64,000 nucleotides of DNA from a virus (taxonomy: Duplodnaviria; Caudoviricetes): IMG/VR virus record IMGVR_UViG_3300009873_000014, positions 5,121-69,120 of that record; one strand, written 5' to 3'. The notes under the pieces were generated by a model that saw nothing but the letters and a program-made list of their open reading frames with translations, made no database searches and was not told the DNA's origin. Of this stretch, positions 8,010 to 64,000 are shown piece by piece; the stretch's first letter is position 1; each line of letters opens with the position of its first letter. The position numbers were made by a program, and so were the translations under genes.

Positions 8010-8096
8010 CGGCGGCACCTAGCACGCGGTAGGTGGTACTGCGGTAGGGTGTCGCTCGCCCACTGGGGGCCATCACGCCGGGGAAAGGACCAACCC

Positions 8097-30379: not shown

Positions 30380-30786
30380 CCAAGGCGGCTGCGGCTGACG
30401 CTCGGTTCTGGCGTGACACCGAACAGGGCGACGGGTGCTGGGAGTGGAAGGGCTACAAGCGTCCGGACGGCTACGGCTCCATCTGGAATGGCGAGACGAA
30501 CGTGCTCGCCCACCGCTACTCGTGGGAGCTGGCCCGCGGCCCGGTCCCTGACGGACTGGGCCTTGACCACATCTGCCGGAACCGGGCGTGTGTGAAGCCG
30601 ACGCATCTTGAGCCGGTCACCCAGTCCACCAACCTGAGCCGGATGCCGCCCCGATCCGTCTGCAAGAAGGGCCATCCGCTGGTGCCGGGGAACGTATACC
30701 TCTACCCGAAGTCGGGTGCTCGGCTCTGCATCACCTGCCACCCCGAGCGCCGGCCCAACTGGTTCCCTGACGAGGAGCAGCCATGA
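30376..30786 (+). CDS. HNH homing endonuclease (HNH_3 type)
   Basis: CWEW.G.....GYG...AHR.SWEL..GP.P.GL.LDH.CRNRACV.P.HLEPVT...N; C-terminal C.KGH motif. Confidence 0.9.
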   Translation: MTKAAAADARFWRDTEQGDGCWEWKGYKRPDGYGSIWNGETNVLAHRYSWELARGPVPDGLGLDHICRNRACVKPTHLEPVTQSTNLSRMPPRSVCKKGHPLVPGNVYLYPKSGARLCITCHPERRPNWFPDEEQP

Positions 30787-45638: not shown

Positions 45639-46057
45639 GCGACCAGCTCCTCGCCACCGCGTGGTCCGGCAAGGCCGCGGCGGAGATCGCCGGGATCTCC
45701 TACCGGCAGCTCGACTACTGGGCGCGCACCGATCTCGTGCGCCCCTCGATCGCCGACGCGAACGGCAGTGGCTCTCGCCGGCGCTACTCGTACGACGACC
45801 TCGTGCAGCTCGCCGTCATCCGGGCGCTCCTCGACGCCGGCGTGCAGCTCGGCACCGTGCGAGATCTCCTGCCGGCCGTCGGCGGCGACGAGGTGGGCTA
45901 CCTCGTGGTGGCCGGCGCGACCGTGGCCCGTGCGACCACCCTCGACCAGCTCGGCCCGGTGCTGGCCACGCTCTCGTCGCCGGTGTCCACCCTCGTGTCG
46001 GTCACGGAGATCCGCCTCCACCTCGACCTGGCGCTACTCGACTACGCGCAGGGCTGA
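45635..46057 (+). CDS. MerR-family regulator of the conserved actinobacterial Rv1830-like type
   Basis: GISYRQLDYWARTDLVRPSI..A.GSGSRRRYS..D. Confidence 0.85.
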   Translation: MSDQLLATAWSGKAAAEIAGISYRQLDYWARTDLVRPSIADANGSGSRRRYSYDDLVQLAVIRALLDAGVQLGTVRDLLPAVGGDEVGYLVVAGATVARATTLDQLGPVLATLSSPVSTLVSVTEIRLHLDLALLDYAQG

Positions 46058-46239
46058 CCGCGCGCGAGTAGGCGCGCGCGAGTAGCACGGCCCCGTCGGC
46101 GGGCGCACCGGCGCACGAGCGCGGCGACGCCCCCGACCCGGAGGCCGAGGGCGTCGCTCGGGGGTAGGTGGCCCCCATGCCGGGTAGGTGGCCCGGCGCT
46201 CCGGCGGCGACAGGGAGTAGCCAGCCGGAGATCCTGACG

Positions 46240-46725
46240 CTACCCGCCGGCGAGCACCGGATCGGGGAGCGGGTCATGGCCGGCGAGGCACGGTCCGCAC
46301 CGGACCACCTCGCCGACGAGGTACGTCTCGGACCGTGGCACGCCGCACGTGGCGCACGGGCACGAGATGGTGCGAGATGATGCGTGAACGCCGGCCGTGG
46401 TGAGCGCACCTCCGCACGAGGCACACGTGCGCTCGTCGTAGGGCACCGGTGTCGCCGTAGCCAGCTCCGCTCCGAGCGCCGGAGACGGCGATTCAGCGGG
46501 TGCTCCGGCCGGATTCGCGTGCCGGAGGGTCACGTACCTCCTCCCCTCGTGCTCGTAGGCCACGGCCATCACCTCCTCGGCCGTCGGAGCGCCGCTCCAC
46601 GAGATCTCCGTGCGGGTGTAGGACCCGCTCCGAGCCACGCACCGGACCGTCCAGCTCGTGGCCGGGTAGAGCCGGCGGAGATCGGCCCGGATCGCGTCCG
46701 GTCGGCGGTACCGCTCCATCGTCAT
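46240..46725 (-). CDS. Hypothetical protein (N-terminus resembles polyvalent-associated LPD29-like domain; C-terminal Zn ribbons)
   Basis: IRADLRR.YP...W.VR....SY...ISW.G.PT; CASC..CATC..CGPC. Confidence 0.5.
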   Translation of the reverse strand: MTMERYRRPDAIRADLRRLYPATSWTVRCVARSGSYTRTEISWSGAPTAEEVMAVAYEHEGRRYVTLRHANPAGAPAESPSPALGAELATATPVPYDERTCASCGGALTTAGVHASSRTISCPCATCGVPRSETYLVGEVVRCGPCLAGHDPLPDPVLAGG

Positions 46726-47225
46726 CGGAGATCCCTGCCGTTCGCCGTGCGCCCCGTCGTCCACGCGCCGTCACGGCCGGCTCCGAGCGACTCGCCGCCA
46801 TCCACCCGTGGGCAGTCGGAGCAGTCGCCGGCGAGCGCGACCCAACACTCCGGCGTCAGCGCGTCCGGGTGGCCACACGTGCCGTCCACCTCGTCGGCGA
46901 ACCGGCATCCGGGCACCGGCCGGGCGAACCCGTGCGGCTCGCTCTCGTCCTGCCGGAGCCACGTGGTCGGATCGGCAAGATCCTCACGCACGTAGGCCAC
47001 GGCCGCGGCGACGGCCGCGGCGACCACCTCGCGGCGCGTCTCCCCGGTGAACCGGCGCGCCTGCCGGCCGCTGGCAGCGCGCACGTCGGCGCGCCACTCG
47101 CGGGTCACGAGCACCCGGCGGAGGTTGTACCGCGTCTCCGAGTAGGAGAGATCGGCCACCACCTCTGGCCCGTCGGTCCACGTGACCCGGCCGGCGCTCG
47201 TGAGGTACCCCTTGCGCTCGGTCAC
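46722..47225 (-). CDS. Hypothetical protein
   Basis: GTGA-type overlaps; 167 aa. Confidence 0.55.
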   Translation of the reverse strand: MTERKGYLTSAGRVTWTDGPEVVADLSYSETRYNLRRVLVTREWRADVRAASGRQARRFTGETRREVVAAAVAAAVAYVREDLADPTTWLRQDESEPHGFARPVPGCRFADEVDGTCGHPDALTPECWVALAGDCSDCPRVDGGESLGAGRDGAWTTGRTANGRDLR

Positions 47226-47551
47226 GAGTCCGTCTCCGGCGCTCGGCGCTCGGCGAGCACCATGCGTGCGAGATCATGGGCCGCGTCGGAGATCGTCGGT
47301 TGCGACAGGCCGGGGTACTCCCGTGAGTGTCGCCAGCTCGCACGCCGGCTCGTGCCGCGAGCGTTCACGTACCGGGCACCACGGCTCCGGCGCTCCCACG
47401 TCTCGTGGTAGCGAGAGATGGTGCCGATGCGCTCGCCGTTGAGGTACGCGACGTACTCGCCGGGTCCGGCCCGCTCCACCTCCACGTGCTGGCCGACCAG
47501 CTCCGGCATCCACACGCGGTCGCTCATCTCGACCGTGCGACGGGTGCTCAC
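47222..47551 (-). CDS. Hypothetical protein
   Basis: Coupled; 109 aa. Confidence 0.55.
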   Translation of the reverse strand: MSTRRTVEMSDRVWMPELVGQHVEVERAGPGEYVAYLNGERIGTISRYHETWERRSRGARYVNARGTSRRASWRHSREYPGLSQPTISDAAHDLARMVLAERRAPETDS

Positions 47552-48723
47552 GGCTCGTCGCTCTCGGCCATCGCGTCCAGCGCGTCGCGCTCGTCCTCGC
47601 GAGCCTGGCGCTCGCGCTCGGCGTCCAGCGCCGGGATCGCGCTGGCCGACACCACGAGGAACGCGTGGTATCCCTCGCCGTCGGCGTCCGTGCCCATCTC
47701 GGCGTCACGCTCGGAGGAGATCCGGGTGGCACCGGAGCGGGTGAACGGGCCGTCGTAGGACCCGTCCGGGTTGAGCACGTAGTGCTCGCTCCCCGGCTCC
47801 GGGTCGTAGTCCGGCGCGTGCTCGCACGAGATCTCGTGGCCGATGCTCGTCGCACCGTGCACGAGACACTCGTAGATCTCCCCTGCCTCGTCGTCGGCGT
47901 CCACGAGCACGTACCGGCACGTGAGGTAGCCGGCGATCGGCGTGAGGATCTCGCGCCCGTCCTCGTCGCGCACCGGGTCGCCACCGTTGTTGTGGCCGTC
48001 GGAGTAGGGATCGTGGGCCGGGTCCCGCGGGCACGAGCGCACCTCGCCGGGCGCGGCGTCGGGGATCGCGGCGTCGCACTCATCGCACGATCCGTTCGGG
48101 CGCGAGTCCGGGTGGTGGTCCTCCACCTCCGAGATGATCTCGCCGGCCAGCTCGCCGATGATCTCCGGGTAGAACGAGTCCACCTCGTGGAGCGACGCGC
48201 TGGCCATCTCCACCTCGTGCTCGCCGCCGGCGGAGTCGCGGACCTTCTCGGTCAGCACGAGCCGGACGGTCAGCACGCCGTCCTCCACGATGCGCGCCAC
48301 GGTGGCCTTGCACTCGGCCATCCACTCGGCGTCCAGCTCCGGCAGTCCGATCTCCTCGGCGGTCGGCGGTTGCCACCAGCACACGGAGCCTCCCTGCACC
48401 GGCTGGCGGTAGACGATGCTCGCCGCGCCGTCGAACCCGTCGGGCCGGCCGTCGCGGTGGCCGGACCACGCGACGCGCCCGAACCCGTCGCAATCGTTGA
48501 GGTACTCCACGCCGGTCCACTCGCCGCGCTCCTCGTCCTCGGAGACGATGCGGAGGGTGAGCGTGCGGCCGTCGGCCAGCTCGAACGTGTCGCCGTCCTC
48601 GGTCAGCGCGGCCATCGCCGCGGCGAGCGCCGGCGACGGGTCCAGTCCGTGCCGTGCGATCTCCGCCGGCGTCCGGTCCGTGTTCTCGTCGTAGACCAGC
48701 TCGGTCAGTCGGTAGGTGCTCAT
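47548..48723 (-). CDS. Acidic mosaic hypothetical protein
   Basis: ATG after GACAGGGA; 391 aa. Confidence 0.65.
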   Translation of the reverse strand: MSTYRLTELVYDENTDRTPAEIARHGLDPSPALAAAMAALTEDGDTFELADGRTLTLRIVSEDEERGEWTGVEYLNDCDGFGRVAWSGHRDGRPDGFDGAASIVYRQPVQGGSVCWWQPPTAEEIGLPELDAEWMAECKATVARIVEDGVLTVRLVLTEKVRDSAGGEHEVEMASASLHEVDSFYPEIIGELAGEIISEVEDHHPDSRPNGSCDECDAAIPDAAPGEVRSCPRDPAHDPYSDGHNNGGDPVRDEDGREILTPIAGYLTCRYVLVDADDEAGEIYECLVHGATSIGHEISCEHAPDYDPEPGSEHYVLNPDGSYDGPFTRSGATRISSERDAEMGTDADGEGYHAFLVVSASAIPALDAERERQAREDERDALDAMAESDEP

Positions 48724-48886
48724 GTTCCCTGTCCTCCTGCCGGGTCCTCACCCGGCGGTCGTGCTCGGTAGTCCACGGTGGACGGCCGATGCGAGGAGCG
48801 CCCGGACCCGGCGGGTGGGAGGGTAGGACCCGGCCCGGACGCTCTCCGCACCGGCCAGCCTTGCGGCCGGCCAGTGCTCGTGACGG

Positions 48887-50038
48887 TCAGCTCACCCGGA
48901 CCGGCATGAGGAGCCGGGTCCGACCGTCCACGTCCCGTGCCACGCACGGCTTCTGCGCGTCGCGCATGGTGAACCGCGTGCCGGCCGTCATGCCGGCGAG
49001 GAGATCGGCGAGGTAGTCCGGGTTGTAGGCCACGGTCAGCTCCGGCCCATCCCACGAGCACCCGGCGAGGGTCACCTCGCGCTCCCCGCGGTCCTGCACG
49101 ATCATCCGAGCCACCACGGCCGGCCCGTCGGGCATGAGCCGGACCGGCGTGTTCAGCTCGCCGAACCCTCGGAACGCGGTGGCGATGGCCGACGAGATGG
49201 CCGACGGGTCGGCGATGACGATGGCCGACGGCTCCGTGTCGGCCGACGGGATGAGTCCCTTGTAGTTGGGAAACTCACCCTCCATCTCGCGGCACGTGAC
49301 CGTGGCCGTGCCGTGCGGACCCGTGACGCTCATGGTCAGCGTGGCCACCGTGCTCCGGTCCTCGCGGATCTCCTCGTCCGTCTCCACGATGACGGTCATC
49401 TCGTCGGCCTTGGCCTTGCTCGCCGCGGCCACGATCATCGCGAACGGCCGGCGGGTGACCATCACGTCGAACGGCACCTCGTGCACCGGGCGCTCCGCCA
49501 CGTGGAGCCGGTACGAATCCGTGGCCACCACCCGGTCACCCTCCACCCGGAGGCACGAGAGGATCGGACGGGACGCACCGTCGCCGGCCGTGGCCGGCAG
49601 CGTCTCGGCGAACGGAGCGATGCTGGCCGTGAACGGCCGGCCGTCGGCGACGGCCGCGATCCGCGGCCACTCGTCCAGCGCGAGGCATCGCACCTCGGAC
49701 GTGTAGTCCGTGGTGACCGTGACGCTCGTGACCCGGCCCGTGCCGGCGACCACCACGGAGTCCGACTCCACGATCCGCACGGTGCCCTTCCCCTTGCTCG
49801 CGGCCTTGATCTCCGCGAACGGGATGACGGCCGACCCGTGGCCGGCCACCTCCGCGCCGGCGAACGTGTAGCTCGCCGTCACCTCAAGGTCCGTGCTCGT
49901 GAACGTGACGCCGTGCTCGTCGGCCGTCACCCGGACGCCGGAGAGGATCGGCAGCGCACCGCCGCGGCTGGCCACCGCCTTGCCGACGTGAGGCACGGCC
50001 GTCCGGAGCGCGGCACGGTCAAGCGTGAAATCCATCAT
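48887..50038 (-). CDS. dnaN: DNA polymerase III beta-clamp homolog
   Basis: F.LDR..L......V.KAV.SR..LPILSGV; STDLE; ATDSYRL; GEFPNY..LIP; AYNPDYL.D; LLMPVR. Confidence 0.9.
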   Translation of the reverse strand: MMDFTLDRAALRTAVPHVGKAVASRGGALPILSGVRVTADEHGVTFTSTDLEVTASYTFAGAEVAGHGSAVIPFAEIKAASKGKGTVRIVESDSVVVAGTGRVTSVTVTTDYTSEVRCLALDEWPRIAAVADGRPFTASIAPFAETLPATAGDGASRPILSCLRVEGDRVVATDSYRLHVAERPVHEVPFDVMVTRRPFAMIVAAASKAKADEMTVIVETDEEIREDRSTVATLTMSVTGPHGTATVTCREMEGEFPNYKGLIPSADTEPSAIVIADPSAISSAIATAFRGFGELNTPVRLMPDGPAVVARMIVQDRGEREVTLAGCSWDGPELTVAYNPDYLADLLAGMTAGTRFTMRDAQKPCVARDVDGRTRLLMPVRVS

Positions 50039-50085
50039 GGGTTGATCTCCCTGTCTCGTGAGCCGGCACCTAACCGGCTCGTTTC

Positions 50086-50101
50086 CTATACCGGAGTATA
50101 C
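50086..50101 (-). promoter_or_regulatory. Operator/promoter copy on minus strand (GTATACT-CC-GGTATAG) for dnaN-like gene
   Basis: Reverse complement of ctataccggagtatac. Confidence 0.75.
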
Positions 50102-50217
50102 ACACTCCGAGTCCGTTGGCAAGCATCCCGTGCCACCACCACCACGAGCCACCACCACCACGTCGCCGGCGCTGGCGCGAGTAGCCGCGCGAGCAAGCGC
50201 GCGAGCAACACGCGCCG

Positions 50218-50889
50218 TCACGCGTCCCCGTCCTCTCGTGCCAGATTCTTGAGCGCCACGGCGGAGATCCCCGTCAGCGTGGCGATCTCCGGCCACGTGC
50301 ACCCGGCCCGGCGCATCGCTCGCACCGCGCCAGCTCGAACGGCCGACGCTCGCCGACGTGACTCCTCGGCCAGCACGAGCGCCACGGTCCCGCGGTCGTA
50401 CTCCACGAGCGCCGCGGCCAGCTCCTCCGCCACCACGGCCGGCCGTGGCTCCACGTACCGGACCCGGCCCACCTCGGCCAGCTCCTCCGGTCGCCGGAGA
50501 TCTCCGACCATCGGACCGGGTGGCACGTCCTCCGGCCGTAGCTGGCCGACGGCGAGCGCCACGGCGACGGCGACGGCGAGCCGGTAGGACCCGCTCCACG
50601 GTGCCCACTCCGGCCGGTCGGCCGGCACCCGCACGAGCCGGCGCGCCACGTCCTCGCCGACGTACGCGCCCACCTCCACGAGCCGGACCGGCCACACGTA
50701 CCCGGACGCGGCCAGCGCGGCACGGACCCGGCGAGACGTACGCGCCACCTCGTCCGGGTCCTCGGCCGGTGCACCGTGGAGCACGAGCGCCGGCGCGGCG
50801 TAGCGGGTGAGCACCCGCACCACGGCCGGCCGGCCGTCGCTCGTCCTCGTCGGCACTACCGCGCCGCGCACTGTCTCGGATGGCTCCAC
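50218..50889 (-). CDS. ComM/YifB N-terminal-like domain fused to C-terminal HTH
   Basis: LVLHG.P......R...RVRAAL..SGY.WP.R...V...PAD.....SY.LAVAVA..L..GQL; C-terminal RRAG.TWPEIA.LTGIS; start GTG 50889 or 50913. Confidence 0.6.
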   Translation of the reverse strand: MEPSETVRGAVVPTRTSDGRPAVVRVLTRYAAPALVLHGAPAEDPDEVARTSRRVRAALAASGYVWPVRLVEVGAYVGEDVARRLVRVPADRPEWAPWSGSYRLAVAVAVALAVGQLRPEDVPPGPMVGDLRRPEELAEVGRVRYVEPRPAVVAEELAAALVEYDRGTVALVLAEESRRRASAVRAGAVRAMRRAGCTWPEIATLTGISAVALKNLAREDGDA

Positions 50890-50985
50890 GTCCCTAGCCT
50901 CTCTCGTGGCCACGCTCCACGCGCACGAGCACCCGGCCGGCGGACCGGTCCGGGTGCTCGTGAGTGTCGCTCGTGACCCGCCTAC

Positions 50986-51618
50986 CTAGCGCCGGCCACC
51001 CGCCACGCACTCCGGCCGGCTCCACACGGCCGAATCCTCCGCCGCGGCGTAGCCGATGGTCCGGCCGTCCTCGCCGATCCATCGGCCGTACGGCGACCCT
51101 CCCACGTAGTCCGCGCCACGGAGCGCCGGCGGGTCCGGGTCCTCGTCGGCATGGCCGGCGATGCGCTCGCACCCTCGGACCGGCTCCGAGAACGTGGCCG
51201 ACGGCCGGCACGCGGCCAGCACGAGCACGGCGAGCACGAGCGCCACGAGGAGCGCACCCGCTCGCACGTGGCCACCCTCGGCCGGGTACGCGCCCACCGG
51301 GTCCGGCAGCTCCTCCACCTCCGGCCGTGACCCGTGCGGGTATCGGATGCTCCGCACGGTCCGGCATCCGACGGCGCGCCGGTACTCGCCGACGAACGAG
51401 GAGCCGGCCGCGCTGGCGCGGTTCGGCCCATCGCCGGCGCTCCACTTGCGCGGCACGTACTGGAACACTCGGAACGTGTCCGCGCTGGCCGGCACGAGCC
51501 ACCCGGCGAGGTACTCCCATAGGTCCGCCGGCAGCTTGCCGCGGCGGAGGGTCGGACCCTCCACCACCTCCGACCCGGCTCCGTGCTCCGGGTGCTCCCA
51601 CTCCACTAGGTAGAGCAT
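50986..51618 (-). CDS. Hypothetical protein with internal lipoprotein-like second half
   Basis: ATG after GACAGGGAG; internal GTG 51267 with GAGGGT RBS followed by hydrophobic run and LAAC lipobox. Confidence 0.55.
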   Translation of the reverse strand: MLYLVEWEHPEHGAGSEVVEGPTLRRGKLPADLWEYLAGWLVPASADTFRVFQYVPRKWSAGDGPNRASAAGSSFVGEYRRAVGCRTVRSIRYPHGSRPEVEELPDPVGAYPAEGGHVRAGALLVALVLAVLVLAACRPSATFSEPVRGCERIAGHADEDPDPPALRGADYVGGSPYGRWIGEDGRTIGYAAAEDSAVWSRPECVAGGRR

Positions 51619-51787
51619 CGCTCGTCCTCCCTGTCTCTACGGTCCGCACCCTACGGACCGTGCCAGCGCGGCCGACCGGAGCCGGTAACGCTGGCACCGT
51701 GCCGGAGCCTCGGAGAGTGCTAGAGGCTCCGGCACGGGTGCCGGGTCATGGCGGGTGGCTAGGTCGGCGCACCCGCTCGCCGATGAC

Positions 51788-54331
51788 CTACCGCGCCGGG
51801 TAGTCCTCGCCGTGGAGCGCACGGAGGAGCCGGCACCCGGCGATGGTCAGCACGTCGGCCACGATGCCGGACGAGAGATCGCCGTCCGATCCGACCGGCA
51901 ACCCGTCCACCGCGTACCGGGTGCCATGCTCCGCGGCTTGCCGGTCCGTCAGCTCCTCCACTTGCTGCCACCCGCACACGTCCACGAACACGCGCCACCG
52001 GTCGTACGTGGCAGTCGTGACGCTCATTCCGTCCGGGTCCACGAGGTAGCTAGGCACGTTGTCCACGTTGTCCACCTCGTCCGGGTCCACCTCGGCGCGC
52101 CAGTCGTAGTACGCGCTCTCCACGTCTCGGAGCCACTCCGCACCCGGCGACCCGTCACGGGTGAACCCTCGCGCCGGCCAGTCGCTCCGCTCCCACGCGT
52201 CCGGCTCGTCGTACCCGTAGGCGTCCGGCGCGTCCGGGTCGTGCACGTCGGCGAGGTTGGCAAGCTGCCACGTGGTCCGGCGCTTGCGCTCCGGGTAGAC
52301 CATCTCCCGCGCCACCCGCTCCACGTGCTCCGCCGCGGCCACGTTGTAGGCGTCCTCCCACGCGTCCGCCACCTCGTCACGGAGCCACGTCGGAGCCTCG
52401 GCCGGCTCGCGCTCGCCGTCCTCCGGGTCGCCGTCCGTCTCGGCGAGGATCTCGGCCACCACTCGCGCCACGGTGCACGGCGAGCCGGTCGCCGTCTCCA
52501 CGAGGTAGGCCACCTCGGCGAGCGCCGCGCCGGCCACGCTCTCGGCCGTCTCGCCGTCGGCCCACTGGCCGGAGAGATCCGCGGCCGGCATCTCGTCGGA
52601 GATCTCCGGGTCACCATCGGCCAACCCTCGGAGGAGCACCCGTGCTCGCTCCATGTCGGCCGGCTCGTGCCACGTGGCCGCGGCGCGGCCGGCATCTCGG
52701 CCGGCGACCGTGGCCGCGGCGATGGTCAACCCGTGCCAGCTCCACCCGTAGAGCCACGAGACGGCGAGCGCCGGCACCGTGGCCGGCTCCTCGTCCTCCG
52801 GCTCGTCCTCGGCCAGCTCCGGCAGGATCTCCGCCACCTCCGCCACGAGCCGGCGGAGGAGCCACACGAGCGCCACCACCACGAGCACGGCGAGCACGAG
52901 GAGCACCACGGCGACCGGACCACCCGGCCACCCGGCCCACACGGCGAGCACCACGGCGAGCACTCCGAGCGCCGGCAGCTCCGCCGCGCCGCGCTCGCCG
53001 TCGTACCGCGCCACGTTCGCCGCGTGCGCGTCCTCCGTGTGGCTCGCTCCGAGGTAGCACCACCCGCACCGCTCGGAGTCTCCGCCGGCCGGGTAGGTCC
53101 GCCGGGTGTCGCTCCGGTCCTCCGGTCCGGCCAAGTGGACATGCCACCCGGCCGGGTCCGTCTCGTCCGCCGCGGCGTCCGCGCGGCCACCGGGCAGCAC
53201 ACGAGCGCAGTAGCCACGGTCCACCCGGTACGGGTCCTCGCGGTGCGCCACGGTGCCGACGAACCCGCAAGGCTCGCCGACGGCGAGGAGCGACCCGCAC
53301 ACGGTGCACGGTGCCAGCTCCTCCGGGTCGCCGTCCGTCCACCCGTCCACGTGGCTCCACACGGTGGCACCCGTGGCACGGTCGGCCCACTCCGGCCGGC
53401 TCGTGCCGGAGACGGAGCGCCGGTACTCGTCCTCCGTCATGGCCGGCACCTCGTGGCCGGTAAGCGTCACGCTCCGGCCGTCGTACTCCTCGCCGAACCC
53501 GCTCCGGCCGATCTCCACGAGCCGCGCCCACACTCCGGATGGCACGTGCTCGGAGCCGGAGTGCACCCGCTCCACCCGGTGCACGGTCCCTCCGAGGTTG
53601 ACCCGCTCACCCTCCACGAGTGCCAGCACCTCCGCCACCGGTGCGAGGTAGCCGGAGCCACCCGGCCGCGGCGTCACGTGCTCCACGGTCCGGAGCGTGG
53701 CCGGCTCCGTGTGGGCACCTCCGAGGTTGACCGGGCACGGACCCTCGCCGTACTCGGCCAGGCTCCGGCCACATGCCAGACAGACCGGCCGGCGCTCTCC
53801 GAGCATCTCGGCCACCGCGTCCGCCGCGTCGCTCTCGTCCGCTCGCACGGTCCGGAGGAACCCGGCCGTACCTCCATCCCAGTGCCGGCCCACTCCGGCG
53901 ACCACCTCCGCCGCGGGCAGCTCCTCCACGTCCTCCGGGTCAAGGTCCGACCACCCGCAATCGGCGAGCCAGCCACGAGCCTCGGCCAGCTCCTCGGCCG
54001 TCCACCCGGCCGGCAGCTCCTCCGGCTCCTCGCTCGTGACGCTCGTGAGCCACGCGTCAAGCGCCGCGCACTCCGGGCACCCGTCCACGTTCCGAGGGTG
54101 CTCGCCGCGCTCGTGAGCCTCGGCGAGATCCTCACCCGCTCGGAGCGCGGCGACCCGCTCCACGTCGGCCAGCATGGCGGACCGTGCCGCGTCCTCTGCT
54201 GCCACCCGGTCGGCCACGTCGCCGGCTCCGACCACTCCACCGAATCGCACCGTTGCCCAGTGCCACCCGTCGGCCGTCTCTCGGCCACTCATCGTGTACC
54301 CGTCCTCATCGGTCCGGAACGTCTCTGCCAT
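51788..54331 (-). CDS. Large mosaic (polyvalent-like) protein, 847 aa
   Basis: ATG 54331 after GACAGGGAG; string of short acidic domains with one internal TM segment. Confidence 0.7.
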   Translation of the reverse strand: MAETFRTDEDGYTMSGRETADGWHWATVRFGGVVGAGDVADRVAAEDAARSAMLADVERVAALRAGEDLAEAHERGEHPRNVDGCPECAALDAWLTSVTSEEPEELPAGWTAEELAEARGWLADCGWSDLDPEDVEELPAAEVVAGVGRHWDGGTAGFLRTVRADESDAADAVAEMLGERRPVCLACGRSLAEYGEGPCPVNLGGAHTEPATLRTVEHVTPRPGGSGYLAPVAEVLALVEGERVNLGGTVHRVERVHSGSEHVPSGVWARLVEIGRSGFGEEYDGRSVTLTGHEVPAMTEDEYRRSVSGTSRPEWADRATGATVWSHVDGWTDGDPEELAPCTVCGSLLAVGEPCGFVGTVAHREDPYRVDRGYCARVLPGGRADAAADETDPAGWHVHLAGPEDRSDTRRTYPAGGDSERCGWCYLGASHTEDAHAANVARYDGERGAAELPALGVLAVVLAVWAGWPGGPVAVVLLVLAVLVVVALVWLLRRLVAEVAEILPELAEDEPEDEEPATVPALAVSWLYGWSWHGLTIAAATVAGRDAGRAAATWHEPADMERARVLLRGLADGDPEISDEMPAADLSGQWADGETAESVAGAALAEVAYLVETATGSPCTVARVVAEILAETDGDPEDGEREPAEAPTWLRDEVADAWEDAYNVAAAEHVERVAREMVYPERKRRTTWQLANLADVHDPDAPDAYGYDEPDAWERSDWPARGFTRDGSPGAEWLRDVESAYYDWRAEVDPDEVDNVDNVPSYLVDPDGMSVTTATYDRWRVFVDVCGWQQVEELTDRQAAEHGTRYAVDGLPVGSDGDLSSGIVADVLTIAGCRLLRALHGEDYPAR

Positions 54332-54393
54332 CTCGCACTCTCCCTGTCTCGTGGCGCTCGCTCCGGTCCTCACCGGTGGCCACACGGAGAACC

Positions 54394-54409
54394 CTATACC
54401 GCGGTACAC
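54394..54409 (-). promoter_or_regulatory. Operator/promoter copy on minus strand (GTGTACC-GC-GGTATAG)
   Basis: Followed by GGT giving TATAGG -10-like box; upstream of 847-aa gene. Confidence 0.75.
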
Positions 54410-55045
54410 GGCCGGAGCAACTACCCGCCACCCTCGGCCGGCCCACGAGCACGGCGACCCGGTGCCCACTCGTCCACCACGAGGAGCCACGGCGAGCCGG
54501 TCGGCCAGCTCCACACCGCGCCACCACGTCCAACCCGCCCACCTACGGCCGGCCACCCGCTACCCGTCCGCACCCGCTCCACCGTGCCCACACTGGCCTA
54601 GAGCCACGCACCCGGCCACGCACCCGCAAAACCACGGCCGACCCTCCCACCCTCCACACGTCCCCGGAGGTACCAAAACCACGGAGAACCCGGCCCACTC
54701 GCACACGTAGCGCCGGCTCGTGGCCACGGTGCTCGGAGGTATACCCGTCCTCGTGCTCGCTCCGGCTCGTGCTCGTGAGGCTCCGAGGTATACCCGGCTC
54801 GCTCCGTGCCGGCTCCGTGCTCGTGCTGCACGGCGACGAGGAGCGCACGGCGACCCGCTCGGACCCGTCCGGGCACCCTCCACCCTCCGACCCTCGGACC
54901 GGACCGGCCACGGCGAGGAGCGCCGGCACCCGGCCACCCTCCACGGCGACGCTCCGCACCGCGGGACCGGTACACGCGCACCCGCACCCTCTATCCACAA
55001 GGGGGTCGCCTCCTCTCGGGACTATGTGGCGGGGAGGGTGGGGGT
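54410..55045. other. Non-coding divergent region, putative genome end / packaging origin
   Basis: C-rich left of ~55010, G/T-rich right; GAGGTATACCCG repeated at 54736 and 54785; directly upstream of terS. Confidence 0.5.
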
Positions 55046-55048
55046 ACG

Positions 55049-55828
55049 ATGCGGGGCGTGAGCACGGCCGAGGTGGAGCTGGTCCCTGGTGGGGACGTGG
55101 GGTCCGAGGGGGAGGCTCCTGCGCTGCGGGCTGGTTTTCGTGGTTGGTGGGAGCGGCCGGTGGATGATCTGCCGGGGGTGGGGCCGGAGACGGCGGGGGA
55201 TCGGGTGGTGCGGTTGTTGCGGCGGGGGGCGTGGCCGTCGGTGGTGGCGGAGCTGGCGGGGGTGGATGCTGCGACGTTGCGGGCGACTCGTCGGGAGGCT
55301 GCGGCGTTGGGGGCGCGGTGGGCGGCGATCGTGGCGTGGCGGGAGGACGGCGTGGAGTTGCCTCCGGGGGTCGAGGACGTGGACCTGACGGCGGCGGAGT
55401 GGTCGCTGTTGGAGTTCGGGCGGGCGTTGGCGCAGGCTCGTGCGTGGGACGAGGTGGAGCGTGGCGAGGTCATCCATGCGACGGCGATGGGTGAACGGAA
55501 GCGCACGATCGTCACGACGAAGCACCGGGTCGAGCAGGGGGAGGATGGGGCGGAGAAGCTGGTGCCGGTGGAGATGGTGGAACGGGTCGAGGAGATCGCC
55601 CCTGATCCGGCGGCGCTGATGAAGGTGCAGGAGCGGCTCTACCCGGAGCGGTGGGGGCAGGTGGATCGTCGGGAGACGACGGTGAGCGGCACCGTGAACG
55701 TGGTGCACGCTGATGCGAAAGATCTCGTGGCGTCGGTGCGTGCCCGGCTGTCGGAGGCTGAGGAGCGCAGGGCCACGGCGATCGAGGTTGAGGGTGGACC
55801 CGTAGACGAGGAGCCTCTACCGGAGTAG
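55049..55828 (+). CDS. terS: Terminase small subunit
   Basis: N-terminal HTH (VVAELAGVD..TL); FGRALAQARA..EV; A....ERLYPERWG..DR.E..VSG. Confidence 0.75.
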   Translation: MRGVSTAEVELVPGGDVGSEGEAPALRAGFRGWWERPVDDLPGVGPETAGDRVVRLLRRGAWPSVVAELAGVDAATLRATRREAAALGARWAAIVAWREDGVELPPGVEDVDLTAAEWSLLEFGRALAQARAWDEVERGEVIHATAMGERKRTIVTTKHRVEQGEDGAEKLVPVEMVERVEEIAPDPAALMKVQERLYPERWGQVDRRETTVSGTVNVVHADAKDLVASVRARLSEAEERRATAIEVEGGPVDEEPLPE

Positions 55829-56472: not shown

Positions 56473-59142
56473 ATGGATGAAACCGGGGTCAGCAAGCAGG
56501 AGCCGATGAGCGTCGAGGACGTTCGAGGCTGGTTCGAGACGAGGGTGCGGGAGCACGGAGGGACGGAGGGCCTGCGCCCGAGGGTCCGGCGGGTGGGTGT
56601 CCTGCTCGCCGAGATCGACCGGCTCCTCGTGGCTGCCGAGGCGTCCGGGTTGCGCGAGGGCGACCTGCGCTGCCTGGTCCGACGGTGGGAGGAGCGGGCC
56701 AACGCCGGCATGGTCGTCACCCGCTGGGACGTGAGCGACGGAGGCGTGCTCGGGGCGATCATCCTCTGCACCGCCTGCCGAGGCGATCGCGAGGTGCGCG
56801 GATGCCTCGTCTGCGACGGGACCGGAGAGCTGCACCGGCCCTACGACTTCGAGCGGTACAAGGCCAGCCTCACTTTCACGCCCGAGGAGCCGGGTGAGCA
56901 GCGCCACCTCGCCGACACCGCCTCGGAGCTGGTGGCCAAGCTGGACGCTCGGGTGATCGAGCTGAACCGGCAGAACGCCGAGCTGCGCGACCGGGAGCGC
57001 CGCCTTGAGGACCGGGTGATCGAGGCTCGGGAGGAGCTGGCGGATCTCCGGGCCACGGCCGAGTTGCTGTCGATGCAGCTCTCGTTCGCCCGGCACGGGA
57101 ACCTGGCCAAGCTCGCTGGCGACGTGATGCCCGAGTGGGAGGTCGTGCCGTCGGGCGAGCTGCGCGCCGGTGACGTGATCGCGTGGGGCGGTGACCGGCC
57201 GATGGAGGTGGTCTACGCCGAGGTCCAGACCGACGCCACCTTCGAGGGCGGCTACTCGTACCGGATGCTCACCGGTGGCGGCACCTTCACGGTGCTCGGC
57301 GGCAGGTACGGCGAGTCGGTCCGGCTCAAGGCCACCGACGAGGACGACGAGGACGAGGTGGTGCTGCGGGCGAAGTGCCCGGACGACGGGACCTGCCACC
57401 ACGACTGCGACGCCGAGGGGCCGTGCTGGCGGGTGCTCGCCTGCGGGCCGCTCTCGGGCGTGTACCCCGGCGACGAGTGGCCCATCGAGATCACGATGGC
57501 CCACCGGTACGAGCAGTCGATGCGGGTGCCCGACGACCAGCTCCCCGAGGTCGGCTCGATGTGGGAGTCCGGCACCGGCGAGAGCTACCACGCTGTCATC
57601 GTGGAGGCCGTCGATCGACCGTGGGTCGTGCTGACCGACGTGGTGGACAAGGGGCAGCCGACGCGGGAGTGGCGCACCAACCTCGGAGCCTTCCTCGCCG
57701 GCTGGGAGAACGCCGGCCACGCCGAGGAGGGATGCACCGCCGAGGACGAGTTCCTCGCCGACCACCCGGTGTTCACGGAGGCGATGGTCACCGCCGCTCG
57801 GCAGGACGTGCCGTTCTGGCCGAACCCGCTGCGCTGGCTCCGCCACGAGATCCTCGTGTGGCGCATCGCCTTCAACCCGGACCTGCCCAACGACGGCATG
57901 ATCCTCGGCAAGCTGATCGCCGGCACCTGCCGCCAGCCTGCCGGCTCGCCGATCGTGGACGACGCCACCGCCGGCGAGGGCGCGGGCGTGGCCATCCGGA
58001 AGCCGCAGCGCGGCGACCGGGGCCTGCTCGCCCCGAACCCGAACGCCGCGCCGGCCAACGCGCTCGTGGTGGCGTGGGCGGTGGGGTCGCGGCTGCGGCC
58101 GTGGTGGCTCTCCCCGCAGAGCACGAAGGTCCGGCTCCGGCACCGGGTGCAGATCACGCGCCTCGGGGCGTGGTGGATGCGTCGGCGCTACGGCGTCTAC
58201 GTGGACGAGATGGCCGCGTGGACGGAGGCGACGGCCGGCCGGCCGCTCACCACGCAGAGCTACGTGGACACGTGGCTCGCCGAGCACGAGGCCCGGAAGG
58301 ACTCGTTGGAGGCGGCGGTCGCCCGGTTCGTGCACGGGCTGGACGACTCGGGGTTCCCCACCGACACCGATCGGCCGACCCTCACCGAGTGGCTCCGGGC
58401 CTCCGAGCACGAACCCACGCAGTCGCAGTGGCTCGCCGCCGACGTGCTCGACGCGGCCTTCCGGGTCCACGGCATCGGCCGTGGCGCGGGCACCACGTGG
58501 CTCTCGACCCGGCTCGTGGAGTGGCTGAACGAGGTCGAGCCGTTCGCCGTCCGCTCGGCGCTGACCAGCCAGCACCCGGAGACGATCCGGGCCGAGGCCA
58601 CCGACGACCTGTACGGCGCGCTCCACACGGCGCGGGAGTTGCTCTGCCTTGCCGAGCCGTACCTCAAGAAGTCGGACCGCCACCCCGGCAACCGACCGGG
58701 CGTGGCGCGCACCCCGTCGGGGCAGAGCGTCCGTGACGCCATCGGTGCGGCCGTGCGCCTGATCGACGCGGCCGGCACCCGGTGGTGCCCGCAGTGGTCG
58801 AAGGACGCCAACACGCACGAGCTGCACGAGCCGTGCGGGTCGGTAAGCGCCGAGGGCACCGTGTGCTCGCTCACGTTGGAGCCGGGCGCGCACCAGCCCT
58901 TCCCGAACAGTCGGCACGTCGGCGTGAACGCCGCCGGCGTCGAGGTCCACTGGGCGGCGGGCAACGGCCAGCACGAGGAGCCGATGGCCACCGGCGGCGT
59001 GTTCAAGGGCGTGGCCTCCATGCCACCCGGTGGAGTCGAGGTCCAGATCGCCGAGAACCGCCACCAGCAGGGCCACCACCGCTCCGCCGCCGAGGAGGCC
59101 GCGGTCCGCAGCTACGCCGACCGGCAGGGAGATCTCCGATGA
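56473..59142 (+). CDS. Large mosaic protein, 889 aa
   Basis: ATG 56473; Zn-finger, coiled coil, SH3-like, CPDDGTCHH-C module and other short segments in one frame. Confidence 0.65.
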   Translation: MDETGVSKQEPMSVEDVRGWFETRVREHGGTEGLRPRVRRVGVLLAEIDRLLVAAEASGLREGDLRCLVRRWEERANAGMVVTRWDVSDGGVLGAIILCTACRGDREVRGCLVCDGTGELHRPYDFERYKASLTFTPEEPGEQRHLADTASELVAKLDARVIELNRQNAELRDRERRLEDRVIEAREELADLRATAELLSMQLSFARHGNLAKLAGDVMPEWEVVPSGELRAGDVIAWGGDRPMEVVYAEVQTDATFEGGYSYRMLTGGGTFTVLGGRYGESVRLKATDEDDEDEVVLRAKCPDDGTCHHDCDAEGPCWRVLACGPLSGVYPGDEWPIEITMAHRYEQSMRVPDDQLPEVGSMWESGTGESYHAVIVEAVDRPWVVLTDVVDKGQPTREWRTNLGAFLAGWENAGHAEEGCTAEDEFLADHPVFTEAMVTAARQDVPFWPNPLRWLRHEILVWRIAFNPDLPNDGMILGKLIAGTCRQPAGSPIVDDATAGEGAGVAIRKPQRGDRGLLAPNPNAAPANALVVAWAVGSRLRPWWLSPQSTKVRLRHRVQITRLGAWWMRRRYGVYVDEMAAWTEATAGRPLTTQSYVDTWLAEHEARKDSLEAAVARFVHGLDDSGFPTDTDRPTLTEWLRASEHEPTQSQWLAADVLDAAFRVHGIGRGAGTTWLSTRLVEWLNEVEPFAVRSALTSQHPETIRAEATDDLYGALHTARELLCLAEPYLKKSDRHPGNRPGVARTPSGQSVRDAIGAAVRLIDAAGTRWCPQWSKDANTHELHEPCGSVSAEGTVCSLTLEPGAHQPFPNSRHVGVNAAGVEVHWAAGNGQHEEPMATGGVFKGVASMPPGGVEVQIAENRHQQGHHRSAAEEAAVRSYADRQGDLR

Positions 59143-59744
59143 CCAAGCCCAACTACGTGTACGTCGCCAGCTCGTGGCGGAACCCCATGCAGCCGGCCGT
59201 GGTCGCCTCGCTGCGCGCCGCCGGCATCGACTGCTACGACTTCCGTGACCCCGCCGGCGACGGCACCGGCGGGTTCTCGTGGAAGGACGTGCGGGACGAC
59301 CCGGAGGCCCCGGCGGCGAGCAACGTGTGCGCCTGCGGCCACGACGCCTTGGCTCACGGTCTGAGCGAGGCCACCGTCCGGTGCATGGCCGACGGTGGCC
59401 GGTGCACCTGCCGCTCGCTCTCCCCGGTGATCGCCGCCAAGGGGACCGACTGGGTGCCCGCCGCCGAGTACCTCCGGATGATCGAGCACCCCGCGGCGCT
59501 CCACGGCTACGGCCTCGACTACGCCGCGATGGAGCGCGCCGACGCGTTCGTGATGGTGCTCCCGTGCGGCAAGAGCGCCCACCTCGAAGCGGGCTGGGCG
59601 ATGGGGGCCGGGAAGCCGACGGCGATCCTGCTCGAAGATCCCGTGGAGCCGGAGCTGATGTACCGGACCACGTTGGAGAACCCGCACGGCCGCATCTGCC
59701 TCACGATGCTGGATCTCCTCGGGTGGCTGGGGGTGGAGGACTGA
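59139..59744 (+). CDS. Nucleoside 2-deoxyribosyltransferase-like protein with Zn-module insertion
   Basis: VYVASSWRN; YDFR; D..AM..AD..V.VLPCG.SAHLEAGWA.GAGKP; EPELMY. Confidence 0.8.
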   Translation: MTKPNYVYVASSWRNPMQPAVVASLRAAGIDCYDFRDPAGDGTGGFSWKDVRDDPEAPAASNVCACGHDALAHGLSEATVRCMADGGRCTCRSLSPVIAAKGTDWVPAAEYLRMIEHPAALHGYGLDYAAMERADAFVMVLPCGKSAHLEAGWAMGAGKPTAILLEDPVEPELMYRTTLENPHGRICLTMLDLLGWLGVED

Positions 59745-61629: not shown

Positions 61630-61646
61630 CCTCCCTCGGCATGGGC

Positions 61647-63095
61647 ATGTCGCTGGTCGAGGAGCTGGCCTCCCTCCCCGTGGAGGAGGCGGAGGCGATC
61701 ATCGACGCCATGTCCGCCGAGGAGCGGGCCATGCTCACGAGCTGGGCCGGCCAGGCGCGGCCCGAGCAGCAGGCCCCGCTCGGCGACTGGACGTACTGGG
61801 CGCTGATCGCCGGCCGTGGCGCGGGCAAGACCCGCGCCGCCGGCGAGTGGGTCTGCGATCGGATCGAGGCCGGCATCGCTCGCTACGTCGGGTTCATCGG
61901 CCGGTCGGCCGGCGACTGCCGCCGCATCCAAGTGCACGGCGAGTCGGGGTTCATCGCGTGCGCCGAGCGCCGCGGGATGACCGTGGTGGAGCAGCCGTCC
62001 CGAGCGCAGCTCGTCGTGGACGGCGAGGTGATCGTGATGTTGTTCTCGGCCGAGGAGCCGGACTCGCTGCGTGGTCCGCAGACCGACACGCTGTGGGGTG
62101 ACGAGTTCGCCGCGTGGGCACCGAAGAAGGACCCGGTGGGCAACACGGCCTTCACGAACGCCAAGGCCGGCCTCCGTCTCGGCGACAAGCCGCAGGGCGT
62201 GTTCTCCACGACGCCGCGGCCGATCCCCGAGGTGCGCGAGGCGATCGAGAACAAGTCCGGCCTGTGGGTCGTGACGCAGATGGCGACGTGGGATAACCAG
62301 GCCAACCTCGCCCCCTCGTTCATCGCCGGCCTCCAAGAGCAGTTCGCCGGCACCCGCCTCGCGGCGCAGGAGTTCGAGGGCAAGTTCTTGGAGGACGTGG
62401 AGGGCGCGCTCTGGACCTACGGGTCGATCCACGAGACGCGCCGGGACGAGGCTCCCCTGCTGCCGCTCCGGGCGATCGCGGTGGACCCGTCGGTGTCCCG
62501 CAACGGCGAGGGCGACGAGTGCGGCATCGTGTGCGGTGGCGTCGGTGACGACGAGCACTTCTACGTCACGCACGACCTGTCGGCGTCGCTGGGGGTCGAT
62601 GCGTGGGCGCGTCGGGTGGTGGACGCGTTCTACTGGTTCGGCGCGCAGGCGGTGATCGCCGAGGTGAACAACGGCGGAGCGATGGTCGAGGCGATGATCC
62701 ACAACGTGGACCCGTCGGTGCCGGTGCTCATGGTGCGAGCGGCCGACTCGAAGCGGGCGCGCGCCGAGCCGGTGGCGCAGTTGTGGGACCAGGGCCGCGG
62801 GCACATCGTCGGCGAGATGCCGGGGTTGGAGCAGCAGCTCGTCACGTGGTCGGACCGGCAGAAGGAGTCCCCGGACCGGCTGGACGCTCTCGTGTGGCTG
62901 GGCCACTGGGCCAAGGAGCGGATGCGCGGTGCGATCGTGGACGTAGTGCTCCCCGGAGCGTCGGCCAAGGCGCGGCAGGAGGCGCTCGTCGCTGCCACCA
63001 CTACGACGGAGGGCCGGCGGATCGTGTCGGGGACCGCGCTCGCGCAGGAGATGCTCCGCCGTCATCAAGACGGGGCCTCCGTGTTCCCCCTCTGA
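61647..63095 (+). CDS. terL: Terminase large subunit
   Basis: Walker A AGRGAGKT, Walker B WGDEFAAW, STTPRP, QE.EG.FL, IAVDPS...DECGI, EVN.GG, SPDRLDALVW; start 61641 or 61647. Confidence 0.95.
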   Translation: MSLVEELASLPVEEAEAIIDAMSAEERAMLTSWAGQARPEQQAPLGDWTYWALIAGRGAGKTRAAGEWVCDRIEAGIARYVGFIGRSAGDCRRIQVHGESGFIACAERRGMTVVEQPSRAQLVVDGEVIVMLFSAEEPDSLRGPQTDTLWGDEFAAWAPKKDPVGNTAFTNAKAGLRLGDKPQGVFSTTPRPIPEVREAIENKSGLWVVTQMATWDNQANLAPSFIAGLQEQFAGTRLAAQEFEGKFLEDVEGALWTYGSIHETRRDEAPLLPLRAIAVDPSVSRNGEGDECGIVCGGVGDDEHFYVTHDLSASLGVDAWARRVVDAFYWFGAQAVIAEVNNGGAMVEAMIHNVDPSVPVLMVRAADSKRARAEPVAQLWDQGRGHIVGEMPGLEQQLVTWSDRQKESPDRLDALVWLGHWAKERMRGAIVDVVLPGASAKARQEALVAATTTTEGRRIVSGTALAQEMLRRHQDGASVFPL

Positions 63096-63122: not shown

Positions 63123-64000
63123 ATGGACCTGCTGCCTGATCTTCCCCAGTCGTACTCCTACGGCGGAGGGGTGCAGAGCACCGCGATGCTCGTGCTCGTT
63201 GGCGAGGGCTACCTCCCGCCCGGCCCCTTCCTGTTCTCCAACGTCGGCGAGGACTCCGAGCACCCGGCGACGATCCGGTACGTGCGCGAGGTCGCCTTCG
63301 AGTACGCCGCGTCTCGCGGTATCGAGATCCATGAGCTGGAACGTGTGGCCACCCGCGGCAAACACAAGGGGCCGATCACGCTCTGGCGTGAGGTGATGGA
63401 TCACACGTCGCGGTCCATCCCGATCCCTGTTCGGATGGGGGACAACGGTGCGCCGGGTACTCGGCAGTGCACCGGCAACTACAAGATCCGGGTCGTGCAG
63501 AAGTGGATCAAGGAGCACGGAGCGACGGCGGCGAATCCGTGGGCGGTGAACGTCGGGATCTCGACCGACGAGTTCGAGCGCGCCAGCTCCCGCACCAACG
63601 AGCCGTACGAGCGTCTCGCCTATCCGCTCCTCACCTTGGAGCACCGGCTCGCTCCGTCTGGCGCGAGCCGAGCGCAGTGCGCCGCCATCATCCGCGACGC
63701 CGGCCTGCCCGTGCCTCCCAAGTCCTCGTGCTTCTTCTGCCCGTTCCACAAGCCCACCGTGTGGGCCGACATGGCGCGGGACGAGCCGGAGCTGTTCGAG
63801 CGGTCGTGCACGATGGAGGACACCCTCAACGTCAGGCGCTCGTCGCTGCCGTGCCCCGGCGCTGGACGCTGGCCGGCCGAGGCCGTCAAGGGGAAGCGGG
63901 ACGACGACGGCAGCGACGCCGAGGTGATCTACCTCGGCTACGACTCGCCGGACGGGAAGGGGGCGTGTCCGTCGTGCCGGTCCCGTCAGCCGATCACCAC
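63123..64000 (+). CDS. PAPS-reductase-family (adenine nucleotide alpha hydrolase) protein, 3'-truncated by window
   Basis: Not in ORF track (open at edge): MDLLPDLPQSYSYGGGVQSTAM...FSNVGED.EHP.T...CT..YKI...GISTDE..R...YPL...PPKSSCFFCPF. Confidence 0.85.
   Translation, partial: MDLLPDLPQSYSYGGGVQSTAMLVLVGEGYLPPGPFLFSNVGEDSEHPATIRYVREVAFEYAASRGIEIHELERVATRGKHKGPITLWREVMDHTSRSIPIPVRMGDNGAPGTRQCTGNYKIRVVQKWIKEHGATAANPWAVNVGISTDEFERASSRTNEPYERLAYPLLTLEHRLAPSGASRAQCAAIIRDAGLPVPPKSSCFFCPFHKPTVWADMARDEPELFERSCTMEDTLNVRRSSLPCPGAGRWPAEAVKGKRDDDGSDAEVIYLGYDSPDGKGACPSCRSRQPIT

Follow-up and report, generated by a model that had tools for sequence, protein, structure and literature searches.

The DNA analysed here is a stretch of 64,000 nucleotides (the window), corresponding to bases 5121-69120 of the 69,120-bp virus record IMGVR_UViG_3300009873_000014, and it belongs to an uncultured tailed phage of high G+C content (71%) from activated sludge. 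Gene calling based on third-position G+C (GC3) places all genes on the plus strand except for a block of eight, at 46240-54331, which are read leftwards. We found that this leftward operon (46.2-54.4 kb) and the non-coding junction that precedes it have been purged of a set of short words by selection acting on double-stranded DNA, and that the purge reaches down to the choice of amino acids. The best explanation available, to which we would give about an even chance, is that the phage avoids restriction sites in its leading, early DNA in a manner similar to T5 and T7.

Short words missing from the minus-strand block

The tetranucleotide TCGA occurs five times in 46041-55370 and 473 times in the remainder of the 69-kb genome, or 0.54 versus 7.9 times per kb. 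An earlier note on this DNA, working from a hand count, had placed the five copies at 47529, 48431, 48581, 49467 and 50335; a recount returned exactly these positions and not a single TCGA in 50336-55370. The reference densities also agreed, with 10 TCGA and 28 GGGC plus GCCC per kb in a stretch labelled as capsid (361-1360) and 2 GGGC plus GCCC per kb at 52-53 kb. The second-longest TCGA gap of the genome (1,491 bp, the typical gap being about 130 bp) lies, like the longest one, in the block. In the TCGA-free zone, CTTC/GAAG, CCCC/GGGG and GGGC are nearly gone as well and GATC is scarce; a density-based test expects 34.9 copies of TCGA where one is counted (p=7e-15), and 28.4 of CTTC/GAAG where there are none. 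By a maximal-order (Markov-2) model, the ratio of observed to expected TCGA is 0.12 in the region (42 expected) and 0.96 outside it.

When four- and five-letter words were scanned without bias, the lowest values in the block were those of CTTC/GAAG (0.13), CCCC/GGGG (0.18), TCGA (0.22), CAGG/CCTG (0.25) and GCCC/GGGC (0.33). The same five words have observed/expected ratios of 0.72-0.97 outside the block genes. TCGA is the clearest case overall; GATC and CAG/CTG show a lesser reduction, and at the three-letter level CAG/CTG, CCC/GGG and AAG/CTT are moderately reduced. A general loss of palindromes was considered and rejected, CCGG, GGCC and GCGC being abundant in the block.

To hold both the proteins and the per-gene codon usage fixed, codons were permuted synonymously within each gene. 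Under these shuffles the block is expected to contain 23.7 ± 3.4 TCGA and contains 5; the corresponding figures, observed versus expected, are 26 versus 78 for GGGC, 20 versus 61 for GCCC, 0 versus 15 for CTTC and 3 versus 8.5 for GAAG, with z values from -5 to -11 for TCGA, GGGC, GCCC, CTTC and CCCC. The plus-strand genes behave as predicted (443 TCGA observed, 456 expected). Avoidance therefore persists in a word statistic controlled for amino acids, a check that the earlier note had suggested.

These data bear on the possibility that no selection on DNA words is involved and that the deficit is a by-product of amino-acid composition, G+C content or biased codon pairs in acidic proteins that evolve fast and contain little Lys. 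The block proteins are low in Lys, Phe, Ile, Asn and Gln, with G+C at the first and second codon positions (GC1 and GC2) higher than in the rest of the genome, and part of the effect is already present in them: recoded with genome codon usage they would carry 28 TCGA (3.7 per kb, compared with 7.9 genome-wide), so that the amino-acid sequences account for roughly half of the lower density and synonymous choice for the other half. However, the protein-preserving shuffles still predict a roughly five-fold higher number of TCGA, and three- to eight-fold higher numbers for the other depleted words, than are observed. Furthermore, the non-coding junction is free of TCGA too, the dinucleotide preferences at codon junctions match those of other genes, and the lack of Ile-Asp/Glu pairs described below is more readily seen as an outcome of avoidance than as its source. 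The by-product explanation is thus largely refuted, and we consider it very improbable.

Gradient and boundary

A composite of seven words was used to rank the 68 genes of at least 100 codons. The eight genes of the block are the eight lowest, with observed/expected ratios of 0.09-0.50 compared with 0.54-1.05 for the others (Mann-Whitney p=2.7e-10), and within the block the ratio is higher the farther a gene lies from the junction (Spearman 0.81, p=0.015). Across the junction, it passes from 0.15 in the first block gene to 1.05 in the terS-like gene on the other side. In 500-bp bins the composite is about 15 at 44-46 kb, 0-2 at 50.5-53.5 kb, 4-5 at 53.5-55.0 kb and 35 at 55.0 kb, the very point where the GC skew flips from -0.28 to +0.44. 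The earlier note had described a graded depletion, strongest nearest 55 kb; the gradient is borne out gene by gene, whereas its second part is only roughly right, the minimum being at 50.5-53.5 kb.

Imprint on codons and proteins

The avoidance can be read in the choice of individual codons. CTC, which accounts for 69% of the other Leu codons, is used for none of the nine Leu residues that precede Asp or Glu; Val before Asp or Glu is encoded by GTG in 40 of 41 cases, and Ser before a codon starting with A by AGC in all ten. Ile, for which the block uses practically a single codon, ATC, is followed by Asp or Glu in 0 of 53 instances, as against 17% elsewhere, an absence better read as a result of word avoidance than as its cause. 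Codon usage in the block otherwise resembles that found elsewhere in the genome.

None of the three reading frames is spared by the depletion, and most words are affected to the same degree on either strand; together with the unchanged dinucleotides at codon junctions, this points to an effect at the level of double-stranded DNA and not of translation or RNA. An mRNA interferase or another cause at the RNA level was discarded, since most words are depleted on both strands, as was a general codon-junction bias, since the junction preferences of the block are unaltered. The only clearly strand-asymmetric word is CCTG, found 3 times on the coding strand where 35 are expected, its complement CAGG being found 9 times where 13 are expected.

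The same position in a related phage

A homologue 49% identical to the 259-amino-acid (aa) terS-like protein led us to a related phage, a 67,203-bp Logan contig that was examined over its full length. Its architecture is the same: a MerR gene, a leftward block of twelve genes (4942-11632 of the contig), a 560-bp junction, a terS-like gene and TerL (59% identical). Syntenic orthologues within the block are the LPD29 protein, the protein with a ComM N-terminal (ComM-N) domain and a helix-turn-helix (HTH), and part of the 210-aa protein, while the first block genes differ; judging from these matches, the scaffold of the block is ancestral to both phages. Block orthologues are 34-42% identical between the two, other genes 47-59%. 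In both phages the block proteins are poor in Lys (0.6% versus 2.8% elsewhere in the window phage, 0.73% versus 2.66% in the relative) as well as in Phe, Ile, Asn and Gln, and many contain no Lys at all. The scarcity of Lys may be a by-product of the avoidance of GAAG/CTTC and TCGA, or else a trait of the proteins themselves.

The relative carries 140 copies of CTCGAG at a mean distance of 480 bp. The largest gap, 5,345 bp (the next is 1,936 bp), covers the block's junction-proximal half and the whole junction and reaches 543 bp into the terS-like gene, and an unbiased scan of this zone gave CTCGAG, CTCGA, GAAC, CGAG, TCGA and CTTC as the most depleted words. Here, too, codon choice follows: six plus-strand genes encode all 19 of their Leu-Glu pairs by CTC GAG, and the genes of the gap encode theirs by CTC GAA (twice), CTA GAG and CTT GAG. 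Three CTC GAG were counted among the junction-proximal genes; they match the sites, also three, of the 7323-7742 gene, which fall no further than the left edge of the gap. A position-bound feature thus recurs in the relative at the syntenic place, although in weaker and more local form, limited to the proximal zone and to CTCGAG. Since even so diverged a phage has lost CTCGAG from the corresponding stretch, the purge is tied to position and not to particular genes.

These local effects are set in a genome that is, as a whole, under heavy restriction pressure. Some 20 hexamers, each with 16-89 copies expected, are wholly absent from it: AGCGCT, AGGCCT, ATCGAT, CAGCTG, CCATGG, CCCGGG, CTCCAG, CTCGAG, CTGCAG, GACGTC, GAGACC, GAGCCC, GAGCTC, GCATGC, GGATCC, GGCGCC, GGGCCC, GTCGAC, TGATCA and TGCGCA. 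Three of these (CTCCAG, GAGACC and GAGCCC) are asymmetric, and the list includes XhoI-, SalI- and ClaI-type sites with a TCGA core; CCWGG is about three-fold low genome-wide. The words purged from the block only are in part cores of the absent hexamers. The relative shares about half of the absences and carries CTCGAG, CCCGGG, GGATCC and GGCGCC freely; the last three, each found 10-12 times in its block, are missing from the block of the window phage (about 22 expected, none seen). The window phage also has two DNA methyltransferases and nucleoside deoxyribosyltransferase-like and PAPS-reductase-like genes (28756-31595, 59139-59744 and 63123-63998), a set with which, judging from the sequences, it may modify its own DNA.

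The comparison with the relative is relevant to a second alternative, namely that the block was recombined in from a related phage that avoids TCGA and the other words throughout its genome and has not yet drifted back, the gradient reflecting the different ages of a mosaic. One could cite in its support that block proteins are mosaic or ORFans, that the block orthologues have diverged more from the relative than other genes have, and that the block differs from the rest of the genome in G+C content and amino-acid make-up. Yet three block genes have syntenic orthologues in the relative, which has a site-free zone of its own at the same position but with a different word and different genes, and the block shares the genome's private absences of CCCGGG, GGATCC and GGCGCC. 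Its codon usage is otherwise alike, and no donor-like sequence came up in the collections searched (phages, IMG/VR, JGI metagenomes, GTDB). A syntenic purge with partly different words and genes, combined with the shared private absences, makes a recent import of a donor signature quite unlikely, although the block may have been replaced from a third, unsampled relative. The earlier note had held that a full account by donor signature or amino-acid composition would speak against its proposal; such an account is weakened by the shuffles, by the orthologues in the relative and by the shared hexamer absences.

Proposed avoidance in leading DNA

If the purged DNA is indeed the leading segment of the genome, the words avoided would be targets of host restriction-modification or of similar defences that read DNA. 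The block would enter the cell and be expressed first, with a genome end near 55.0 kb, and its putative promoters at about 54.4 and 50.1 kb would fire inward, away from the junction, as they do in T7 and in the first-step-transfer region of T5. Such a segment would have to last without protection until the remaining genome is shielded by the segment's products or by some other means, and the gradient might then reflect time of exposure or order of expression. An abrupt step in word content at 55.0 kb is what one would expect if this point joined the two ends of the virion DNA. Four-letter words would be too costly to avoid over 69 kb and could be eliminated only from a short stretch such as the block, while the twenty or so six-letter sites could be avoided everywhere.

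The earlier note had proposed that packaging starts near 55.0 kb, so that the block is ejected first, is cleared of targets for host defences and encodes a candidate set of undescribed anti-defence genes. A DNA-level feature under selection, bound to position, graded, adjacent to the terS-like gene and recurring in the relative, agrees with such a clearing; the start of packaging and early ejection are conjectural, and the last part finds no support in known families, as no block protein matches an anti-restriction family in Pfam, PHROG or NCBIfam scans. We regard the block genes as anti-defence candidates on a hypothetical basis. The proximity to the terminase noted at the time does not extend to the large subunit, which lies 6.3 kb from the junction (61641-63095).

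Several other observations weigh against avoidance in leading DNA. The minimum of depletion is 2-4 kb inside the block, away from the junction; avoidance is not universal, the palindromes CCGG, GGCC and GCGC being plentiful; no host restriction enzyme for TCGA has been identified; and TCGA over the whole block of the relative is undepleted when compared with shuffles (observed/expected 1.03). The same type of promoter and operator serves the plus-strand replication genes, so that the block may be expressed no earlier than those genes. The sequence is held by Logan contigs of a single run, probably the source sample, with no molecule ends listed; contigs run across the 55-kb junction and likewise across the record's 144-bp terminal repeat; the assembly therefore behaves as a circle, and the repeat looks like an assembly overlap. 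Finally, TerL carries T4-type Terminase_6N/6C domains, and under headful packaging no fixed end would enter first (PMC12455610).

It is also worth considering that selection might be bound to the operon and unrelated to the order of entry, some factor that reads the words acting on this transcription unit alone. A nuclease of the phage or of the host could be this reader, as could a methyltransferase, a nucleoid factor or a transcription factor; in a variant of this idea, the unit must stay uncut or unmodified to be expressed, for instance in a carrier or lysogenic state. The depleted domain does coincide with one transcription unit plus its leader, its minimum is inside the unit and not at the edge, CCTG and CAGG differ between strands, and the phage possesses two DNA methyltransferases, HNH genes and the candidate modification set. 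Most words, however, are depleted symmetrically and in all frames, and they share cores with classic Type II sites avoided genome-wide. Moreover, if all of the DNA were present at once, a cut anywhere should kill, and a benefit restricted to one operon requires an additional assumption. We judge this alternative unlikely, if less so than the import of a donor signature.

It is tempting to extend avoidance in leading DNA into a more detailed proposal, which we put forward tentatively and hold to be rather less probable than its core. In an Actinomycetota-type long-tailed phage, the first 5-9 kb to enter would form a stealth leading segment, from which defence pressure strips four-letter words to the point of rewriting proteins, with no Ile-Asp/Glu pairs and little Lys or Phe remaining. 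The step at 55.0 kb would mark, in the sequence itself, a physical end and the polarity of entry, entry would be slow or stepwise, and the ORFans (the 847-aa, the 210-aa and the acidic 391-aa protein) would include functions in anti-restriction or DNA entry. Should avoidance in leading DNA hold true, the genome ends, entry polarity and early regions of metagenomic phages could be predicted cheaply, a short list of candidate anti-defence genes without known relatives would be at hand, and the block would exemplify the moulding of protein sequences by DNA-word avoidance.

Genes and sites in and around the block

Coordinates are collected in Table 1. Elsewhere, packaging and structural genes, including TerL and a gene of tape-measure size (2,136 aa), are found on the plus strand, along with genes for replication and recombination (Mu Gam-like, Erf, initiator, topoisomerase-like, helicase and the two DNA methyltransferases). 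A near-identity search of a collection of isolated phages returned no close relative of the genome, nor did scans of IMG/VR, where the best TerL relatives are at most 42% identical and none was found for the 847-aa protein. Two scans of JGI metagenomes and one of GTDB genomes, based on alignments of the terS-like protein and TerL, gave no matches, and neither did tblastn searches of phages with the 259-aa, 847-aa and 391-aa proteins.

Table 1. Position of the depleted zones, genes and putative sites in the window
Feature	Coordinates	Strand	Remarks
LPD29-domain protein, 174 aa	46240-46764	-	Last block gene; orthologue in relative 39% identical
Protein of 167 aa	46722-47225	-	Gene call; function unassigned
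Protein of 109 aa	47222-47551	-	Gene call; function unassigned
Mosaic protein, 391 aa	47548-48723	-	Net charge -60; residues 28-201 in a family of ~165-aa proteins
DnaN-like beta sliding clamp, 383 aa	48887-50038	-	PF00712, PF02767, phrog_947
Internal promoter-like site	50087-50122	-	Upstream of clamp gene; TTGCCA, 16 nt, TATACT
Protein of 231 aa	50218-50913	-	ComM/ChlI-N-like N-domain and C-terminal HTH; orthologue in block of relative 42% identical
Protein of 210 aa	50986-51618	-	Strongest depletion of any gene (observed/expected 0.09); C-terminal half matches part of first block gene of relative
Acidic ORFan, 847 aa	51788-54331	-	First block gene; Cys-pair motifs; central hydrophobic, likely membrane, segment; composite observed/expected 0.15
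Distal part of block	46058-50335		Partial depletion; 5 TCGA; composite observed/expected 0.27-0.50 by gene
TCGA-free zone, 5,036 bp	50336-55370		Longest TCGA gap of the genome
Non-coding junction, 717 bp	54332-55048		Separates divergent block and 259-aa gene
Promoter-like site of block	54385-54430 (~54395)	-	Leftward-facing; -10 TATAGG within operator-like word TACCGCGGTATAGGG
terS-like gene (tentative), 259 aa	55049-55828	+	Opens rightward operon; observed/expected 1.05, normal words resume
TerL, large terminase	61641-63095	+	Terminase_6N and Terminase_6C domains

The beta-clamp, the mosaic protein and the ComM/ChlI-N-like domain with HTH, which the earlier note had recognized in the block, are present by profile and sequence matches. 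The assignment of the clamp as DnaN, made from sequence profiles, is solid: PF00712 exceeds its cut-off and PF02767 narrowly misses its own, phrog_947 aligns over the full length (8e-35), and TIGR00663 aligns with positions 1-366 at 86 bits, under its equivalog cut-off of 137.65. The best cellular relatives of the clamp, at about 36% identity, are from the Acidimicrobiales, which may be taken as a weak hint to the host. Two clamp-bearing contigs, L030 and L033, are rich in TCGA but unrelated to the window phage, and hence uninformative as controls. For the 231-aa protein, a match (E about 1e-4) was obtained to the N-terminal part of a ComM/ChlI-type gene on another phage-like contig. In L030, itself phage-like, a full-length ComM/Mg-chelatase gene is paired with a clamp gene that follows a 232-aa gene (at 674-2107 and 5844-7732 of the contig), an arrangement that echoes the succession of ComM-N-like gene and clamp in the window. 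Two Logan contigs carry a one-base deletion variant (depth 39.5 of 142) at window position 50148, which lies in the spacer separating the ComM-like gene from the putative promoter of the clamp gene.

For the 847-aa protein, no homologue was found among 5.8 billion proteins of similar length, and the Atlas gave no usable match; its start at 54331 is supported by the putative promoter near 54395 and by a leader that is conserved in the relative. The N-terminal domain of the 391-aa protein (48120-48642, minus strand) belongs to a family of ~165-aa proteins with 171 cluster representatives and no named relatives. Its AlphaFold 2 (AF2) model is confident, with a predicted local distance difference test (pLDDT) score of 94. 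The domain has no sequence match in Pfam or the PDB, Foldseek returned nothing from the PDB at E <= 0.001, the best VIA-align Z is 5.3, and the matches in BFVD are uncharacterised phage proteins only.

Between 54627 and 54806, the junction contains two pairs of direct repeats of 35-38 nt with a spacing of 47-49 bp, and each repeat of the second pair ends in a copy of GAGGTATACCCG; the junction of the relative has two copies of GGTATACC. A conserved GGGGGTCGCC is located at 55000-55010, exactly where the GC skew flips. From their sequence and position, the repeats and GGGGGTCGCC could be packaging or regulatory sites. Runs of CACCC in the leader might represent a Chi-like oriented word. Words of the same type as TACCGCGGTATAGGG, which overlaps the putative block promoter, stand at some ten further promoters, and a matching site occurs in the relative. 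More generally, a promoter-like word composed of a TTGACC-like box, a spacer and TACCnnGGTATAG, with a palindromic core over the -10 region, is found at 23136, 31727, 36650, 40329, 41579, 50097, 54395 and 56458, preceding non-structural operons on both strands. This recurrent word accounts for the roughly 15-fold over-representation of TATA.

We tentatively regard the 259-aa product as TerS, on the basis of its position, of a language-model resemblance to Sf6-type small terminases and of a low-confidence structural model. No Pfam, PHROG or NCBIfam profile matches it. The AF2 model (pLDDT 60) predicts, in this order, an N-terminal HTH, a helical oligomerisation core and a beta region; Foldseek links it only weakly to the SF6 small terminase (E 0.13-0.8), the best VIA-align hit (Z 5.9) is an unrelated HTH protein, and ESM feature matches of 0.93-0.94 include Sf6_terminase clusters. 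The gene lies 5.8 kb upstream of TerL in the window and 3.8 kb upstream in the relative. A closer terS-like homologue, 64% identical, is encoded on a contig of 1.3 kb.

Comparison with known systems

Phages T5 and BF23 (Tequintavirus) are restricted only when sites fall within the first-step-transfer region (PMC10644984). In those phages as in the window phage, the segment concerned amounts to ~8-13% of the genome; it is terminal in T5 and would be so here if the proposed end is correct. Sites matter inside the segment and are tolerated elsewhere (PMC10644984), as word counts suggest for the window phage too, and the segment encodes mostly uncharacterised proteins, which in T5 are early. The differences are nonetheless considerable: the window phage, high in G+C, tailed and equipped with a long tape-measure gene, is unrelated to T5, shows no evidence of long terminal repeats, of an injection-stop signal or of transfer in two steps, and has a depletion that is graded, extends to several four-letter words and reshapes proteins. 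General family scans of the window proteins turned up no T5 pre-early gene. The 847-aa product of the first gene, membrane-like by sequence, may loosely recall the T5 functions needed for the second transfer step.

In Murciavirus, a relative of T7 in the Autographiviridae, sensitivity to restriction depends on whether motifs are located in the first-injected region, and the leading regions of these phages are variable and suspected of anti-defence roles (PMC12455610). Inward-facing promoters at the leading end would be a further similarity, given the promoter-like sites and the end proposed here. Unlike in Murciavirus, where a single Type I motif was involved and the effect was shown experimentally, many short words are concerned here and the argument is drawn from sequence; moreover, only the block follows the proposed direction of entry, the remaining genome facing the opposite way. 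In a recent survey, the leading regions of conjugative plasmids were GC-richer and enriched in anti-defence genes, a parallel to what is proposed for the block, and better adapted in codon usage, with no consistent depletion of short palindromes (PMC13478746); in the window phage, by contrast, depletion is extreme and is achieved with rare codons. The absence of some 20 hexamers, common to block and genome, is akin to the genome-wide avoidance of Type II palindromes, from which the purge of TCGA and other four-letter words differs in being graded and limited to 13% of the genome. Avoidance statistics taken over whole genomes would dilute or miss such strong sub-genomic signals.

Sub-genomic avoidance of restriction sites in leading DNA is already known; the present case differs in its lineage, in the strength of the effect, in how many short words are involved, and in having a gradient and an imprint on proteins. 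In T5-like and T7-like relatives among coliphages, the position-limited character of avoidance was established by experiment (PMC10644984, PMC12455610); in the window phage, a sequence signal that can be followed gene by gene, and that is repeated in a relative, points to the same logic.

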